Assembly (NCBI RefSeq): GCF_008000775.2 | Contig: NZ_CP042905.2 | Coordinates: 2,816,998 to 2,836,997, forward strand | DNA: 20,000 nt | DNA from: Promethearchaeum syntrophicum | GTDB taxonomy: Archaea > Asgardarchaeota > Lokiarchaeia > Sigyniarchaeales > Promethearchaeaceae | Direction of reading: 5' to 3' | In this document: one piece after another, positions 4,372 through 18,871 of the stretch | How positions within the stretch are numbered: position 1 is the first letter of the stretch | Layout of the letters: each line of letters opens with the position of its first letter | Notes under the pieces: model-generated | The model's input: only the letters and a program-made list of their open reading frames with translations | Databases searched by the model: none | What the model was told of the DNA's origin: nothing | Translations under genes and position numbers: made by a program

Positions 4372-4923
4372 ATGAATGATACTCAAATAGATTTTATCTT
4401 TAAAATAACAGTAATTGGAGATAGTGGTGTAGGAAAAACATCGTTAATTAAACAATATACTCAGAGTTCATTTGAAAATGATTATATTTCTACAATTGGG
4501 GCCCAATTTTCTATATATAATGAAGAGATAGATGGGGGTAAATTTAAGTTATTTTTATGGGATATCGCTGGTGAAAAGGATTTTAAATTCCTACGCGCTC
4601 AGTTTTATACAAAAAGTAAAGCCGCAATTATTGTTTATTCTCTCGAGGAAAATGATCATGGAAGAAAAAGCTTCAAGCACATAATTGAATGGTATAAGGA
4701 TATTAAAGAATATTGCGGAGAAATTCCCGTTATCATTTTTGCTAATAAAGTTGATTTAATTGATGAAAGAAATTTCGATGATACGGAGGTACAGAAATTA
4801 GTTAAGGAAAATAACTTTTTAGGAATTTATTATACTTCCGCGAAAACTGGTAAGAAGGTAACTGAAGCTTTCCAATACATAATTAAATTTCTTTATAATC
4901 AGGCTAAGAATAAGATTTATTAA
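4372..4923 (+). CDS. Ras-superfamily small GTPase, Rab-like
   Basis: G1 GDSGVGKTS, switch I YISTIGAQF (Rab-like TIGxxF), G3 WDIAGEK, G4 NKVD, G5 TSAKTG. Size is 183 aa. There is no C-terminal prenylation Cys motif. Confidence 0.9.
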   Translation: MNDTQIDFIFKITVIGDSGVGKTSLIKQYTQSSFENDYISTIGAQFSIYNEEIDGGKFKLFLWDIAGEKDFKFLRAQFYTKSKAAIIVYSLEENDHGRKSFKHIIEWYKDIKEYCGEIPVIIFANKVDLIDERNFDDTEVQKLVKENNFLGIYYTSAKTGKKVTEAFQYIIKFLYNQAKNKIY

Positions 4924-6394: not shown

Positions 6395-7552
6395 CTAATT
6401 ATTTTTCAAATCCGATTTCAAAGATCCCAAAACTTGATTAATGTAAAAATCTTCATCAATTATCCAATTTTGTGTTTTTTCATCCCAAGCATCGGCGTTG
6501 AGTAAGTATGTTTGAGTTCGTGGAGAATCGATATAATTAATGTGAAGTTCTTGAAGTTTTGGACGTAAGTAAAATAATAAATCAGACATTTGTGAAGTTG
6601 GTAAATGTAGGTACCAATATAGCTTATATCCATCAATTTTTAAAGTAGATAAAAAAGGAATTGGATTCAGTTCCATTAGAGTTTTTATTTTTTGTAATTC
6701 TTTTTCTTCTCCATACCCCCAGATGAGAAAAGTATTTAGAATATCAAAATTTATTGGGTTGATTATTGCACGATGAGTTTCAATACATTCTTCTTTAACC
6801 AATTTTAATCGCCTACTAAAGGTTGGGTCCGAAATTTCCCATCCTCGTGTCTTTAGTTTAGCGATCATATCAGAATTTTTTCTTCTGGCATTCCAGGATA
6901 ATTCTCCAATAATTGCAATATCTTGTTTTTTTATCCAATTTTTAGCACTCCCAGGTATTTCCAATTGTTTTATTGAATGGTTAGATGTTATAGGTGCAGT
7001 TCTATTATTTTTTTCAAACCAGTCTTCCCAACTAAAATTCCAACTTAGATATTCAGAGTCCCATGCATCAATTTTTATCGTTGAATATACTGATGGTACT
7101 GAATATTGTAAAATTTTAAAATCATCAATTTGTCCAAAATTTTTCATTTTTTGGAATAAAGTTCGGATCAAATTATCAGAACCAATAGGATTTGTTAATT
7201 GAATAAGCATTCCATTTACATCCCCATAAGTCCTATTGTAGAACACAATATATGGATGTTCATCACCTAATTTCTTGATTATTTGAAGTTTTTTTTCAGA
7301 GTCTGCTTTTACTATGACATCTACACGTTGTAACCCTAAATTATAGAGATGCGGAAGGCTTTTTACTTGAAAATATGGTATAGAATTTGGTGGTCCTTCT
7401 AATTTCTTCACAATTCCGAACACAACAGATTTAGATAAATCAGTCATAGAAGCTAGTTCATCATATGTTGCTAAAGGTTTCTCTTCAAGAGCAATAAGTA
7501 CCCGCTTTTCACGTATAGACAATTGACTGATTTTGCTTTTCTTTTGTTCCAC
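6395..7552 (-). CDS. Tandem-duplicated Lrp/AsnC-like regulator (2 x [winged HTH + effector-binding alpha/beta domain])
   Basis: First half: N-terminal wHTH LSIREKRVLIALEEKPLATYDELASMTDLSKSVVFGIVKKLEG, then LGLQRVDVIVKA...HPYIVFYNRTYGDVNGMLIQL (RAM-like). Second half repeats the pattern: QDIAIIGELSWNARRKNSDMIAKL..SDPTFSRRLKLVKEECIETHRAIINP..FLIWGYG. Both halves end alike (IDAWDSEYLSWNF against ADAWDEKTQNWII). Confidence 0.6.
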   Translation of the reverse strand: MEQKKSKISQLSIREKRVLIALEEKPLATYDELASMTDLSKSVVFGIVKKLEGPPNSIPYFQVKSLPHLYNLGLQRVDVIVKADSEKKLQIIKKLGDEHPYIVFYNRTYGDVNGMLIQLTNPIGSDNLIRTLFQKMKNFGQIDDFKILQYSVPSVYSTIKIDAWDSEYLSWNFSWEDWFEKNNRTAPITSNHSIKQLEIPGSAKNWIKKQDIAIIGELSWNARRKNSDMIAKLKTRGWEISDPTFSRRLKLVKEECIETHRAIINPINFDILNTFLIWGYGEEKELQKIKTLMELNPIPFLSTLKIDGYKLYWYLHLPTSQMSDLLFYLRPKLQELHINYIDSPRTQTYLLNADAWDEKTQNWIIDEDFYINQVLGSLKSDLKNN

Positions 7553-7677: not shown

Positions 7678-8085
7678 TTAGATTATGAAATTAGGGACGC
7701 CGCCGCCACCGTCATCTTTCGTTACTGATAAATCAATTTGATTTGGGACGCCACCGCCACCATCATCTTTGAATATTAGGTTAATTAAATTTGGAACGCC
7801 ACCGCCACCATCATCTTTGATTATTAGGTTAATTAAATTTGGAACGCCACCGCCACCATCATCTTTGAATAATAGGTTAATTAGATTTGGAACGCCACCG
7901 CCACCATCATCTTTAAATATCAGGAAAATTAGATTATAAGTTCCATTGACCTCTCTATCTTCTTTTATTGAAGTGTTTGTATTGTCAATATTAATTCCAT
8001 TTATTGATACTACCGTTAAAAAGCTAATTGCTGTGACCAGTGACAGCACTAATACGATTTTTGAAATTTTTTTACTTGATCTCAT
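7678..8085 (-). CDS. Secreted or membrane-anchored protein with five tandem KDDGGGGVPN units
   Basis: Signal/anchor MRSSKKISKIVLVLSLVTAISFLTVVSING, then a linker, then 5 x KDDGGGGVPN with hydrophobic spacers (LINLLF, LINLII, LINLIF, QIDLSVT), ending in VPNFII-stop. A TTTTTATAC TATA-like element lies 32-40 nt upstream of the ATG. Confidence 0.7.
   Translation of the reverse strand: MRSSKKISKIVLVLSLVTAISFLTVVSINGINIDNTNTSIKEDREVNGTYNLIFLIFKDDGGGGVPNLINLLFKDDGGGGVPNLINLIIKDDGGGGVPNLINLIFKDDGGGGVPNQIDLSVTKDDGGGGVPNFII
7681..7935 (-). repeat. In-frame tandem repeat, 48-bp period, about 5 copies
   Basis: Copies begin at about 7690, 7742, 7790, 7838 and 7886. The three copies at 7790, 7838 and 7886 share an identical first 30 nt (tttggaacgccaccgccaccatcatctttg); the 7742 copy differs by one base and the 7690 copy is more diverged. 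Confidence 0.9.
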
Positions 8086-8732
8086 TTTTAATACCTATTT
8101 ATATTGGAAAGGTTTAAGTATAAAAATTTTTTGTCGATTTTTTCATTTTTACATTATTGTATTCTTATGAAATATATGATGAAAAATAGAAAATCTAAAA
8201 AATTTTATGAATAATTAATTTAAAATATCAAAATAATAATAGAATTAGATAGATTAGAGAAAACTACTAAATTTTATTTTATTATCTCGATGAATTTTCA
8301 AGATTAAATATGAAGGGAAATTCTCGTCATTTAAAAACAAAAAAAACAAAACAAATATTTAAATATTCTATGAGCGTTTTATCATTTAGTTAAACAAAAC
8401 GAAGGTCATTTAAGTGAATACTTGGAAAGAAGAGATTTCTTTAAACTTTGGGTATAATTCCCGATTACACGAAAGAACGGAAGCAATCCAAGAATATCTT
8501 AAGTCAATATTTATTGCCGTTACAGAAATTGCAGTTTAATCGGGATTAAAAATAGTATTTCGACTCATGACAAAAATCGACAAAAAAATTTTTTAAATGG
8601 AAAAGCAAATTTGGGAAATTAATCGGGTTAATTATATCTTCAGCTTCAATTGATAGGAATAATTGGGAACAAGGAAAAGAAATTGTTGTTATTTGAAATA
8701 AAATATAAGATAAAACGGGGTGTGTATTAAGC

Positions 8733-9038
8733 GTGAATTTAGGATTTAATAGATCAACCTATCATTCAAGAACAATAAGCGTAATTATTCCCAAGCTTGA
8801 TAAATGTTTAAATGATGGAATTTCTTACATGGAAAAGCACAAACCGACAAAGAATACAGTTCGGACAGTTTTTTTATTTGAGAAAAAATTTGACCTTTTC
8901 CGGGCACAAATTGACAATTATAATATATTACCGATAAACACTCAGAATCTTGAAACGAAATATCGACATCTCAAAGAAAAATGGTTATTAGATTATGAAA
9001 GAAGTCTCAAAAAAAGTAAAGAAACTAACGGAAACTAA
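8733..9038 (+). CDS. Hypothetical protein (possibly the 5' part of a frameshifted gene)
   Basis: 101-aa ORF with GTG start and no recognisable motif. It overlaps the next ORF by 44 nt in a different frame. Confidence 0.4.
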   Translation: MNLGFNRSTYHSRTISVIIPKLDKCLNDGISYMEKHKPTKNTVRTVFLFEKKFDLFRAQIDNYNILPINTQNLETKYRHLKEKWLLDYERSLKKSKETNGN

Positions 9039-9207
9039 TAAAAAGATCCTGAAAGATCAACCGCAAAATTCCTTCAGTGCAAAGCAGAAGATTAAAATTG
9101 AGAACGAAAATCAGGAATTATCACCAATTGCACTTATGAGACATCGAATCGAGGAAATGAACAGAAAGCTATTGGAAAAACGCAATCAAGGAAAAATGCA
9201 TAAATAG
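8995..9207 (+). CDS. Hypothetical K/E-rich protein (possibly the 3' part of the same gene as 8733-9038)
   Basis: 70-aa ORF, charged and probably helical. It overlaps the preceding ORF, and an A7 run lies in the overlap. Confidence 0.35.
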   Translation: MKEVSKKVKKLTETNKKILKDQPQNSFSAKQKIKIENENQELSPIALMRHRIEEMNRKLLEKRNQGKMHK

Positions 9208-9245
9208 CAGAAAAAAATTAGAGATTAACAAGATTTGGTCTAGGG

Positions 9246-9551
9246 TTACCATTGATATTTTTTCAAATTTACCTTAAAATCATTGATAAATTCAATACCC
9301 TCCATTTCAAGTAATTCCTTTTGGGTGTTTTTACCATCTTCAGATTTCATAGCGATTATGCCTTTGGAGTTTATAACGCGATGCCAAGGAAGATCATATT
9401 TTTGGGAAGATGAATGTAAGATCCAAGATACTTGTCTTGCACTCCTTGGATTTCCAGCGAGAACTGCGATATTACCGTAGGTAGTAACCTTTCCTTTTGG
9501 AATTTGTTTGATAATTTTAATAACACTATTCGTAAAATCAGATATTGGCAC
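9246..9551 (-). CDS. Alkyltransferase-like (ATL) protein: MGMT DNA-binding domain without the catalytic cysteine
   Basis: GKVTTYGNIAVLAGNPRSARQVSWIL...DLPWHRVINSKG matches the O6-alkylguanine-DNA alkyltransferase C-terminal domain. The PCHR active site reads PWHR, which is the ATL signature. The protein is only 101 aa, with no N-terminal MGMT domain. Confidence 0.85.
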   Translation of the reverse strand: MPISDFTNSVIKIIKQIPKGKVTTYGNIAVLAGNPRSARQVSWILHSSSQKYDLPWHRVINSKGIIAMKSEDGKNTQKELLEMEGIEFINDFKVNLKKYQW

Positions 9552-12751: not shown

Positions 12752-14395
12752 ATGAATAATCTAACAATCACAATTATAATTAATCTTATGGTTTCATTGG
12801 TTTTTATACTATATTCTTTAATACTATATCAATCTCAAAGAAAAAAACAAGAAATTACCGCAGATATTTCAAAAAAAGAGAAGGAATTTCAAACTTTAGA
12901 TGATTACTTCAAAAAGATGGAAGTACTTGTAATTCGAAAAAAAATATCTATGATTGGTCCTCCGAAAAAAGCTCCTCCGATAAAAAAGGAGCGAAGTCCG
13001 CTAGTTATTCAAAAAGATGAGGAATTTATAATTAAAGATGGGGAAAATCTCTTAAATAATCTTGAAAAAGAGTTAAAGGATGCAATGCCAAGAAATGCAA
13101 TCGAATATAAAAGAGACTTAAATACCCTATTAGAAGTTATTTCTAGTTTAGAATCTATGGATGCTTCTCATTATGGAGGTTTAACAGAAGAACCAGAAGA
13201 CATGGGGAAGGGAATGCTTTATGATTCAATATCCAGAAAATTAGATAAAATTATTAAAATATATAAATTTGATGAGTTATATTTCATTCAAGCAGAAAAA
13301 TTGGAGAATTTCGCATTTAAACAAATAAAAAGATTAGAACATAAAGATTTTGAGAAAACACTTGAGATTATGAAAGAAATTGGAAAAATCAATCAAATTA
13401 TTGAAATTGGGCCGCATATCAAGCTGCTAACATTTCATGAAAATCTAAAAGTAAATACTTCTGAAAAAGTTATAATTTCCCTTTATACAGAACATAATCT
13501 GTCAAAAATTGAAGATATTCAAAAAAGAACCTTGTGGAAACCTAGTTTTTTAAATGCTGTTTTACAAAAAATGCAGTCAAAAAAAATATTGGATTTAGAT
13601 TTGCAGGAGCAAATAATTAGTATTAAGGGAATAATATCATCATCCGAACGTTTTGAAAGAAATCAAAAATTAGAGGAAATCATTAAAAATAAAATCAAAA
13701 AGGAAAAAGATAGTAAAAAACTCCTGGGTGATCAACAGCAACATAATATTACCTTAAATAGGAAAAAATCACGAATACAGCAAGAAGAATTAAAAGTTCA
13801 ACAAACGGAATTACTAGCAGAAGCGAAAAAGGAAGCAAAAAAACTATCAAAAATTCATCGAAAAGAAGCAGAAAAACAATCAAAAATCGAAGATAAAGAA
13901 AGAAAAAAGATATTAATAAGCGAAAAAAGTGTTACTGAAGAGGGAGAAAAAACGAACGAAAATCAAAAATTGGTTAAAGAAATTGAAAAGATTTTCAAAA
14001 ATATTAGTAAAATTACAGGTGGAATTATTACTTTCTCTACCTTGCTTAAAATTCTTAAAAATGGGGCATTTCCTAAATTAAAAAAAAATGAATTGTTAAA
14101 TTCTATTAAATTTCTGAAAGAGAAAGAGAGTATTATTGATGAATTATCATTTTCCGGAGTTAAAATTTATAGTTTTGGTGATGCCGTAATTGATGATGAC
14201 ATGAAACGACTAATAGAACAATTTGTTGAAGATGAAGAATTGAATGAGGAGGAAATAGGAGTTGTTATTGATGATTGGGGTAGTAAAAAGATAAAAAAGG
14301 TGATTAAAAAATTCGAGGATCAAAACCTTATCAAAAAAGATAAGAAAAATCGCTATTACTTACCGGGGCTAATCAATGCAAAAAAAAAAAAATAA
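12752..14395 (+). CDS. Membrane-anchored protein with two EAP30 (ESCRT-II Vps22/Vps36)-like tandem winged-helix modules separated by a K/E-rich coiled coil
   Basis: N-terminal TM ITIIINLMVSLVFILYSLILY. C-terminal module (nt ~14010-14380): GGIITFSTLLKIL..ELLNSIKFLKEKE..SGVKIYSF..DDWGSKKIKKVIKKFEDQNLIKKDKKNRYYLPGL follows human SNF8/EAP30 as I recall it (GGLITLEEL..DDLIRAIKKLKALG..GGTYLIQS..KWETERARQVLEHLLKEGLAWLD..HYWLPALF). A weaker second copy lies at nt ~13200-13640 (..FEKTLEIMKEIGKINQIIEIGPHIKLLTF..LSKIEDIQKRTLWKPSFLNAVLQKMQSKKILDLD). Confidence 0.6.
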   Translation: MNNLTITIIINLMVSLVFILYSLILYQSQRKKQEITADISKKEKEFQTLDDYFKKMEVLVIRKKISMIGPPKKAPPIKKERSPLVIQKDEEFIIKDGENLLNNLEKELKDAMPRNAIEYKRDLNTLLEVISSLESMDASHYGGLTEEPEDMGKGMLYDSISRKLDKIIKIYKFDELYFIQAEKLENFAFKQIKRLEHKDFEKTLEIMKEIGKINQIIEIGPHIKLLTFHENLKVNTSEKVIISLYTEHNLSKIEDIQKRTLWKPSFLNAVLQKMQSKKILDLDLQEQIISIKGIISSSERFERNQKLEEIIKNKIKKEKDSKKLLGDQQQHNITLNRKKSRIQQEELKVQQTELLAEAKKEAKKLSKIHRKEAEKQSKIEDKERKKILISEKSVTEEGEKTNENQKLVKEIEKIFKNISKITGGIITFSTLLKILKNGAFPKLKKNELLNSIKFLKEKESIIDELSFSGVKIYSFGDAVIDDDMKRLIEQFVEDEELNEEEIGVVIDDWGSKKIKKVIKKFEDQNLIKKDKKNRYYLPGLINAKKKK

Positions 14396-18001: not shown

Positions 18002-18871
18002 ATGATCAAACATGTGAACATCCTAACCCTTGATGGTAAATCCCTTCTTTTTCGTGAATACGGCGCAACTAAAGTTGATCAAGATTTATTGGCAGGATTC
18101 ATGAGTGCATTTAGTGGATTTATGAAAGAAATCTCCCGATCTGAAATAAAATCAACAGTTACAGGTAATTCAAAATTTATTTATAGCTTTACAGATCAGA
18201 TAATGATAGTAATTTGTACAGATATTAAAGATAATGAAGAGGAGATATATCCAATTCTTGAGACAATTTTCTCCCAATTTTTAGAAAAATACAGTGATCT
18301 CTTTAAAAATAATAAATGGGATGGTGAACGGACCATTTTCAAAGAATTCAAAGAGAATGTTGATAAAATCGTGTTAGGACCAATAAAAGTTTCAATTTTA
18401 GGATACGGTGGTGTTGGAAAAACCACTTTAACCAAACTAATTATCGGGGAAGAAATAAATTTAGAATATGTACCAACAATTACTGCAGATATTGCTACTT
18501 TTGATAAAATGGGAAAACGCAGTATTGTGTTATGGGATTTTGCGGGCCAAATCCAGTTTACCGATTTATGGGACTCACTTTTAAAAGAAACCAGAATAGT
18601 TTTGTTGGTAACAGATTCATCGTATAAAAACGTTCAAGATACCAAAAAAATCATGGAGAAATTTATTGAAAAGGATTCCAATATGTTAATAATTGGAATA
18701 GCAAATAAACAAGATTTACAAAACAAATTATCAACGAAATTCGTTGAAAAGATTTTGAATGTTCCAACGTTCGGCATGATCGCGATAAATCCGAACTATA
18801 GGATAATGATTCACGAAATTTTGAACGAATTCATTGAGAAGATTAATAAAATTGATGGATTCATTGATTAA
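18002..18871 (+). CDS. Fusion of an N-terminal longin/roadblock-like domain and a Ras-superfamily small GTPase
   Basis: Residues 1 to ~125: HVNILTLDGKSLLFREYG....LLAGFMSAFSGFMKEISRSEIKSTVTGNSKFIYSFTDQIMIVICTD, a beta-beta-alpha-beta-beta-beta pattern typical of the longin/roadblock (SNARE-like) fold. Residues ~129-289 carry G1 GYGGVGKTT, switch I VPTITADI, G3 WDFAGQ and G4 NKQD. Confidence 0.8.
   Translation: MIKHVNILTLDGKSLLFREYGATKVDQDLLAGFMSAFSGFMKEISRSEIKSTVTGNSKFIYSFTDQIMIVICTDIKDNEEEIYPILETIFSQFLEKYSDLFKNNKWDGERTIFKEFKENVDKIVLGPIKVSILGYGGVGKTTLTKLIIGEEINLEYVPTITADIATFDKMGKRSIVLWDFAGQIQFTDLWDSLLKETRIVLLVTDSSYKNVQDTKKIMEKFIEKDSNMLIIGIANKQDLQNKLSTKFVEKILNVPTFGMIAINPNYRIMIHEILNEFIEKINKIDGFID

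Follow-up and report, generated by a model that had tools for sequence, protein, structure and literature searches.

In RRNPP pro-peptide/receptor pairs, such as Phr-Rap, PapR-PlcR and AimP-AimR, a small exported product whose functional part is C-terminal is encoded next to a cytoplasmic helix-turn-helix (HTH) regulator, and the peptides are lineage-specific. In KEPs and yeast alpha-factor precursors, a signal peptide is followed only by tandem near-identical short units that diversify fast between taxa; KEPs are defined by a signal peptide and then three or more tandem repeats, each 8 or more residues long and delimited by KR, KK, RK or RR (PMC7329392). RTX/beta-roll and DxDxDG repeats are Gly/Asp-rich loops that alternate with short hydrophobic strands in exported proteins, and variable-number repeat surface proteins (adhesin repeats, CsgA-like amyloids) combine within-gene homogenisation, copy numbers that are polymorphic between close strains, export and strand-prone segments. 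Here we describe a gene for a small, predicted-exported tandem-repeat protein in a 20,000-nucleotide stretch of the genome of Promethearchaeum syntrophicum MK-D1 (contig NZ_CP042905.2; hereafter the window), which shares these features with each of the four. By analogy, it would work most like variable-number repeat surface proteins or signal-plus-tandem-core polyprecursors, and it appears to be a member of none of these groups.

The differences are as follows. Unlike KEPs and alpha-factor precursors, the MK-D1 protein has five 16-residue units without dibasic sites, each with a single basic residue followed by an acidic one, and its archaeal host lacks an endoplasmic reticulum/Golgi Kex2 pathway. 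Unlike RRNPP receptors, the neighbouring regulator has no TPR (Pfam; PDB profile search) and resembles a tandem Lrp/AsnC-type protein; the small gene lies upstream, probably with its own promoter and terminator, the putative ancestral partner is folded, and no Opp-type importer is linked. The RTX family (PF00353) gives no Pfam match to the protein at E<=0.01, and the unit segment GGGGVPNLI departs from the RTX pattern GGxGxDxUx, with Pro at the required Asp; among the repeat proteins described here the unit length varies, Gly occupies most would-be ligand positions and the predicted fold is not confident. Compared with adhesin and CsgA-type repeat proteins, the MK-D1 protein is far smaller, has no domain besides the repeats and shows no sequence relationship; the curli motif S-x5-Q-x-G-x-G-N-x-A-x3-Q is absent. 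The explanation that we favour overall, with a confidence that falls a little short of even, is that the gene encodes a domain-less, tail-amplified exported protein that acts unprocessed as a multivalent array of motifs. What is new here is this proposed origin by domain loss and tail amplification, an Asgard-wide two-gene module, and a gene that appears to have been missed in a flagship genome.

The repeat gene and its selective maintenance

The repeat open reading frame (ORF; coordinates in Table 1) lies on the reverse strand of the window, and its translation reads MRSSKKISKIVLVLSLVTAISFLTVVSING-INIDNTNTSIKEDREVNGTYN-LIFLIF-KDDGGGGVPN-LINLLF-KDDGGGGVPN-LINLII-KDDGGGGVPN-LINLIF-KDDGGGGVPN-QIDLSVT-KDDGGGGVPN-FII*. 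Codons 1-30 encode a predicted Sec-type signal peptide or uncleaved signal anchor, and AlphaFold2 (AF2) predicts a helix at residues 5-29. At the DNA level, Tandem Repeats Finder reports a 48-bp period over 7741-7935 (4.1 copies, 93% matches, score 327), a tandem repeat far beyond chance; a 96-bp row reaches 7688 and takes in the fifth, more diverged copy. The 30-nucleotide core is identical in units 1-3, differs by 1 synonymous change in unit 4 and by 4 changes, all synonymous, in unit 5. Each unit contains one Lys followed by Asp-Asp, and the predicted tryptic peptides of the protein are DDGGGGVPNLINLIFK and close variants, DDGGGGVPNLINLLFK and DDGGGGVPNLINLIIK. An ORF on the opposite strand (FGTPPPPSS..., 7769-7939) was rejected as a mirror image of the repeat that has no conserved N-terminus.

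The public annotation of MK-D1 appears to miss this gene, because the ORF is apparently not called in the public record and the closest database match to its product is only ~50% identical. The missing gene call, the absence of a globular domain that putatively related genes carry (see below) and the location of the repeat just upstream of a regulator gene could all be accommodated by a repeat that has no function at the protein level, being either a decaying remnant or a DNA-level element, such as an array of regulator binding sites, that stays open by chance. We regard this as very improbable. The ORF is intact with a common N-terminus in at least nine distinct lineages, and the signal region (codons 2-31) has a dN/dS below 1 in 21 of 21 pairs, mostly 0.13-0.6 (NG86). 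Codon variants between the units of each protein are synonymous rather than non-synonymous at a ratio of 21:2 in the core, as against 5:7 in the spacers (Fisher p=0.003); the core loop is maintained by purifying selection. The DNA of the units diverges strongly between lineages while the peptide motif [KR][DE].GG.G persists, which is the opposite of what is expected of a binding-site array.

Upstream of the ATG, two short elements are invariant in sequence among seven lineages, although the intergenic DNA around them has diverged. They look like an archaeal BRE/TATA element, which across lineages reads AAAATTTT(T/A)ATAC (also given as AAAATTTTWATAC), and a Shine-Dalgarno sequence. A third conserved box farther upstream, a candidate operator, is not enriched elsewhere in the window. 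Taken together, the substitution pattern, the invariant elements and the intact ORFs exclude a chance ORF and argue against a purely DNA-level repeat, and it is very likely that the ORF is a genuine, apparently unannotated protein-coding gene of P. syntrophicum MK-D1. Runs of oligo-T come after the small gene's stop codon in several lineages. Together with its own conserved promoter box, they suggest that this gene and the regulator gene downstream form two adjacent transcription units, not one obligatory operon.

Turnover of the repeat and its proposed origin

Relatives of the repeat protein are rare. No family in Pfam or NCBIfam matched it, no described family was found among PDB sequences or in the literature, and literature searches on the motif, on secreted proteins of MK-D1 and on archaeal multi-core precursors found nothing relevant. 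There were 4 matches among 5.8 billion proteins, and an exhaustive HMMER profile search of 1.84 billion representatives yielded 6 genuine relatives; lower matches in that search (P0037-P0047) were set aside as unrelated Gly-rich low-complexity repeats, seven of them after inspection. Metagenome contigs scanned with the repeat-protein alignment gave nothing. Two contigs of Promethearchaeum sp. metagenome-assembled genomes (MAGs) also carry the gene, and all relatives are confined to Promethearchaeum-like genomes. Two deviant proteins were encountered in the HMMER search: P0034 (139 residues) joins the repeat-protein N-terminus and ~1.5 units to the C-terminal half of a nearby response regulator, and P0035 (293 residues) follows the shared 42-residue N-terminus with ~250 unrelated residues that have no Pfam match. 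Either assembly chimeras or genuine fusions in which the export module is reused could explain them.

The N-terminus M-x-S-x-KKISKI...LSLV...S-I-N-G is common to all members, and the repeat part differs in every lineage, with 1-9 units of 11-16 residues across the family. MK-D1 has five units of 16 residues (LINLIFKDDGGGGVPN), P0001 and P0002 have four of 15 (K[DE]DGGGGIPTVIILA), P0003 has three of 15 (KDDGGGGVIDLIIQG), and P0004 and P0039 have two each, of 16 (REGGGSGGEPSFIIYL) and 12 residues (LREDGPGGATPT), respectively. Single units occur in P0036 (LREPGPIGGTPSSIGQI) and in three independent assemblies (KDDGGGGDPNVIIQSNNIF; L005, L008 and L009), and sister MAGs carry eight (L010, L012) versus nine (L011) copies of the 11-residue unit LREDGGNGVID. 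Every unit type in every lineage opens with [KR][DE], which contains the only basic residue of the unit. The internal units of a given protein are homogenised, all reading KED in P0001 and all KDD in P0002. Since units are alike within genes and unlike between genes, the repeat undergoes concerted evolution with fast turnover, and the changes in copy number and unit length, combined with homogenisation within genes, point to unequal recombination or replication slippage.

The original prediction, made from the window's sequence, had described a signal or anchor helix, a linker and then nothing but repeats; its core positions agree with ours within one base. It had also proposed recent expansion or concerted evolution, looked to conservation of the core relative to the spacers and recognised no described family in the motif, and on each of these points the analysis bears it out.

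A possible source of the unit emerged from the loci of more distant relatives. At loci with a regulator identity of only 40-46%, the gene upstream of the regulator encodes a non-repetitive signal-peptide protein of 165-180 residues; this form was found in Lokiarchaeum ossiferum (two paralogous loci), in a Heimdallarchaeota/Zixibacteria-labelled MAG lineage and in L021. These proteins belong to a family, here called A3, of 50 members of 150-190 residues labelled Loki, Heimdall, Thor and Hod, all annotated as 'hypothetical' and covered by no Pfam or NCBIfam model, with L. ossiferum NEF87_002510 as one example; a UniRef label of 'DNRLRE domain' for the L. ossiferum protein P0048 was not reproduced by NCBIfam. 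An AlphaFold model of A3 shows an eight-strand beta-sandwich (predicted local distance difference test score, pLDDT, 83.6; predicted template modelling score, pTM, 0.69) with its last strand at residues 163-167, and a Foldseek search with this model returned only generic immunoglobulin (Ig)-like sandwiches, none at E<1e-3. The domain of ~110 residues carries the invariant motifs Y..D.DGxEDD, LPSG, A.E.GWY (ESGWY) and FDP. After the invariant F-D-P comes a tail that consists of an acidic/Gly-rich loop, a near-invariant Pro and a hydrophobic C-terminal strand of 5-8 residues, often aromatic-terminated (examples are REYRDGGLPFAIVLF, PGEGNDGGEPIITYSLW and PTEAGPGLPGVYAYF). The terminal residues are modelled as a beta-strand by AF2, which implies pairing with another strand.

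For a Thorarchaeota member of A3, the gene immediately downstream fits the regulator profile (hhalign probability 100%, E 5.5e-61), and the two-gene module is therefore old and conserved across Asgard lineages. A small predicted-exported-protein gene lies directly upstream of the regulator in 9 of 9 readable lineages, five of the repeat type and four globular, including Thorarchaeota. At every locus where both genes are readable, the orthologue of the 385-residue regulator comes next on the same strand, 65-125 bp downstream of the repeat gene. The loci with the gene-regulator pair are L001-L004 and L008-L012 for the repeat type and L013, L015, L017 and L019-L022 for the globular type; scanning metagenome contigs with the regulator alignment gave only 4 loci. 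One taxonomic label in this set is inconsistent: P0027, a regulator orthologue (L015/L016), is labelled 'candidate division Zixibacteria', and P0051, a near-identical homologue of its small neighbour, is labelled Heimdallarchaeota, a conflict that suggests MAG contigs binned or labelled wrongly. In the Thor locus and in both L. ossiferum loci, the globular member is flanked by genes for large exported proteases (Peptidase_S8 with Big_7; Peptidase_C14 with Big_7; L022 1667-3916 (+), L013 4490-7134 (-), L017 1-850 (+)), and none occurs in the MK-D1 window. Their presence could reflect chance or a functional link.

On the evidence of gene order, the MK-D1 gene is a positional orthologue of the A3 genes, as it occupies the same slot upstream of an orthologous winged-helix (wHTH) regulator. 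It also encodes a putative N-terminal export signal. The MK-D1 protein and P0048 also have 'VSING' in common, and the C-terminal [RKP]-E-x-x-[DG]-G-G-x-P of A3, with its short hydrophobic terminal strand, resembles the MK-D1 unit. The order of the A3 tail is kept in the units (REGGGSGGEPSFIIY or KDDGGGGVPNLINLIF versus REYRDGGLPFAIVLY). A hidden Markov model (HMM) was built from 47 A3 tails, and the last 17 residues of 6 of the 8 repeat proteins outscored at least 98.9% of composition-matched shuffles; the MK-D1 score was reached by 11 of 1000 shuffles, modest support for so short a motif. The MK-D1 protein differs from A3 in that the sandwich domain is missing, none of its motifs (DxDGDGxEDD, LPSG, ESGWY, FDP) occurring in the 135 residues, and in that five copies of the tail stand in place of one. 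We consider it probable that, in the Promethearchaeum lineage (regulator identity at least 68%), the gene lost its sandwich domain but kept the signal, linker and tail, and that repeated amplification of the tail followed. The one-unit form resembles the signal-linker-tail state. A tail kept, multiplied and held under purifying selection in this way would have a function of its own.

Mode of action: array, peptides or fold

How would such a protein act? We think it possible, at somewhat less than even confidence, that it works as an unprocessed, flexible, multivalent extracellular array. This proposal draws on the variable length and number of the units, on an AF2 model that shows strands and loops at low confidence, and on the lack of enzymes and processing sites. 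The product would be exported or membrane-tethered and used intact. Each unit comprises a beta-prone hydrophobic hexapeptide and the acidic Gly-rich loop K-D-D-G-G-G-G-V-P-N, putatively derived from the ancestral tail [RK]-[ED]-x-x-[DG]-G-G-x-P-x plus terminal hydrophobic strand, which would have been retained and then multiplied. Through beta-strand addition, the strands may pair among themselves or engage a binding partner; purifying selection would keep the loop core, and the number of units would tune valency. The neighbouring regulator would most likely control the locus or be co-regulated with it, rather than sense the product.

Alternatively, the protein may be a polyprotein precursor of diffusible peptides, from which, once it is exported, a protease cuts at the conserved Lys/Arg to release peptides of 11-16 residues, with repetition raising the dose and the neighbouring regulator serving, directly or indirectly, to sense them. 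The mature protein is nothing but repeats, the [KR][DE] that opens every unit contains its sole basic residue, strong purifying selection acts on the core within a lineage but the core differs between lineages, as in pherotype systems, and copy number is free to range from 1 to 9. The combination of a signal peptide, a C-terminal functional part and an adjacent regulator gene also recalls RRNPP pro-peptides, and at the Thor and L. ossiferum loci subtilisin-family (Peptidase_S8) genes flank the putative ancestral gene. Despite these parallels, we judge the precursor explanation unlikely. The units lack dibasic sites, with no dibasic pair anywhere in residues 31-135, which places the protein outside the KEP definition (PMC7329392). 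Across the MK-D1 window and the conserved portion of its neighbourhood, Pfam scans of all window ORFs of at least 90 residues and the gene lists of the syntenic loci showed no protease, exporter, maturation enzyme or oligopeptide importer. TPR or other peptide-binding repeats are missing from the regulator, the slot holds a folded 110-residue domain in most Asgard lineages, and the predicted peptides are very hydrophobic at one end. A bolder version, in which the gene would be the first polyprotein precursor of an exported peptide signal in Archaea, evolved from the tail of a secreted Ig-like protein and providing a lineage-specific cue (for self-recognition or for a syntrophic partner) that is read by the Lrp-like regulator, seems to us quite unlikely.

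A related idea is that of a multi-core precursor of a RiPP (a peptide synthesised by the ribosome and altered after translation), modified by enzymes encoded elsewhere in the genome. It would account for a leader-like N-terminus followed by identical cores, and some ORFs of the window have no Pfam match. The probability of this reading is, in our estimation, extremely low, as no radical SAM, YcaO, lanthionine synthetase, ATP-grasp, prolyl oligopeptidase, C39 peptidase or ABC exporter gene was found in the window or near the gene in syntenic loci, the core lacks the residues that are usually modified (Cys, Ser, Thr, aromatics), and the 'leader' is a Sec-type hydrophobic signal and not a typical cytoplasmic recognition leader. 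Two other export-related assignments were considered and rejected. A double-glycine leader (C39/ABC) is contradicted by Asp/Lys residues before GG in place of the hydrophobic -4/-7 pattern and by the lack of a C39-ABC gene nearby, and a PGF-/PEP-CTERM sorting signal by the lack of a transmembrane segment after the tail motif.

The protein might instead be folded, as a Ca2+-binding strand-loop repeat (beta-roll, solenoid or meander) in a small structural or adhesive surface protein. Its Asp/Gly-rich loops alternate with short hydrophobic strands, and AF2 places a strand on each spacer. The 11-residue unit E-D-G-G-N-G-V-I-D-L loosely resembles the calcium loop D-x-[DN]-G-[DN]-G-x-x-D, and a canonical DxDGDGxEDD is present in the putative ancestral family, though elsewhere in the domain. 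Such a fold appears improbable. The AF2 model of the MK-D1 protein is not confident (mean pLDDT 43.1, pTM 0.22) and, at a pLDDT of 43, was not used for a fold search; units of 11, 12, 15 and 16 residues, in copies from one up, do not fit a single solenoid geometry; would-be ligand positions are glycines in MK-D1; and Pfam gives no match to HemolysinCabind or any Ca-repeat family. The original prediction had offered a RiPP/alpha-factor-type precursor and a Ca2+-binding strand-loop protein as its two readings. The missing dibasic sites, the missing enzymes, protease and exporter in the conserved neighbourhood, and an ancestral form that appears to be a folded beta-sandwich speak against the former, and the low-confidence model, the variable unit length, the one-unit version and the lack of any RTX or Ca-repeat match against a rigid form of the latter. 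Its observation that no maturation enzyme lies nearby was upheld by the Pfam scans.

Several observations weigh against a domain-less, tail-amplified protein that acts as an unprocessed array. Two 'VID' variants did not score significantly with the tail HMM, and profile-profile comparison (hhalign) of the repeat family (A1) with A3 gave no significant match, so the link between tail and unit consists of a short motif and genomic position, and homology is not demonstrated. The AF2 model of the repeat protein is uninformative here; computed from an alignment of 5 sequences only, it is also just a weak negative for a rigid solenoid. The existence of a one-unit version means that multivalency is not essential. 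The copy number of five in MK-D1 is known from the closed genome alone: an independent assembly from the short reads of a 99%-identical strain (L007, run DRR199588) is broken in the repeat at window position 7803 and confirms the last units only (1 mismatch in 400 nucleotides), and assemblies of this kind are prone to break within the repeat (L005, L006 and L007). Finally, lineage-specific homogenised units, a single basic residue at each boundary and an adjacent regulator suit a peptide-signal precursor equally well.

The regulator, the surrounding locus and wider significance

The downstream neighbour of the repeat gene encodes a product that matches, at 100% identity, a 'MarR family transcriptional regulator' of P. 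syntrophicum, and its Pfam matches are limited to HTH_24/MarR. Searches of PDB sequences, made with the regulator and with both profiles, yielded no more than weak wHTH matches. Those of the regulator were consistent, with Lrp/AsnC (PH1519) matching across residues 13-121 and ArgR/Lrp winged helices across residues 208-296, and the latter suggest a second wHTH module. We infer from these profile matches that the neighbour is probably a tandem Lrp/AsnC-like cytoplasmic regulator.

Other features of the window are listed in Table 1. The two overlapping small ORFs beside the repeat gene are kept in sequence and order in related loci (for example, L005 5855-6133 and 5659-5871) and are likely to be real uncharacterised genes. 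The ATL-like gene is syntenic in all related loci, and between it and the two small ORFs these loci carry a CheY-like response-regulator gene (L001 3149-3520, L005 5202-5576, L008 1161-1532, L010 850-1221); in MK-D1 this position is a 39-bp gap (9207-9246), and the CheY-like gene seems to have been deleted. The small GTPase genes are typical Asgard eukaryotic-signature proteins, and the Thor locus also has a Ras-family gene close to the module (L022 1-119).

Table 1. Positions of the repeat gene, its control elements and neighbouring features in the window
Feature	Position	Strand	Description
Exported tandem-repeat protein (predicted), complete ORF	7678-8085	-	ATG start, 135 residues plus stop
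N-terminal signal region (predicted), codons 1-30	7996-8085	-	basic n-region MRSSKKISK, then ~20-residue uncharged hydrophobic span ending SING
Polar linker INIDNTNTSIKEDREVNGTYN, codons 31-51	7933-7995	-	two N-x-S/T sequons; poor conservation between lineages
Repeat region, five units	7681-7932	-	hydrophobic hexapeptide plus KDDGGGGVPN each; FII at end
Five KDDGGGGVPN cores	7885-7914, 7837-7866, 7789-7818, 7741-7770, 7690-7719	-	read from the sequence
Shine-Dalgarno-like TAGGTA	8092-8097	-	7-12 nucleotides 5' of ATG; invariant in 7 lineages
BRE/TATA-like box AAAATTTTTATAC	8118-8130	-	33-45 nucleotides 5' of ATG; invariant in 7 lineages
Upstream box ATTTC(A/G)TAAGA, candidate operator	8163-8173	-	conserved across 7 lineages; ~80-90 nucleotides upstream
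Winged-helix protein, downstream neighbour	6395-7552	-	385 residues, cytoplasmic; HTH_24 at residues 13-52
Small ORF	8733-9038	+	101 residues; no Pfam match
Small ORF, overlapping the previous one	8995-9207	+	70 residues; no Pfam match
ATL-like gene	9246-9551	-	101 residues; O6-methylguanine methyltransferase DNA-binding domain only
Ras/Arf/Roc-family small GTPase	4372-4923	+
Ras/Arf/Roc-family small GTPase	18002-18871	+	127-residue N-terminal extension
ORF containing the second tandem repeat	12752-14395	+	547 residues; no Pfam match
Second, weaker tandem repeat	13828-13907		33-bp period, 2.5 copies, 80% matches; A-rich region

MK-D1 is a reference cultured Asgard archaeon for ideas on eukaryogenesis, which turn on its surface and on how it interacts with its syntrophic partners. 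To this organism our analysis adds a gene for a rapidly evolving, predicted-exported repeat protein that the public annotation appears to miss, and it defines an uncharacterised two-gene module, comprising a small secreted beta-sandwich protein and a winged-helix regulator, at loci labelled Loki-, Thor- and Heimdallarchaeota. It also provides an example of gene remodelling in which a folded domain was apparently discarded while a tail of 15 residues was kept, multiplied and held under purifying selection. If the product is processed into peptides, the gene would make communication by peptides in Archaea directly testable; if it forms a surface array, it would be a candidate for a strain-variable surface determinant.

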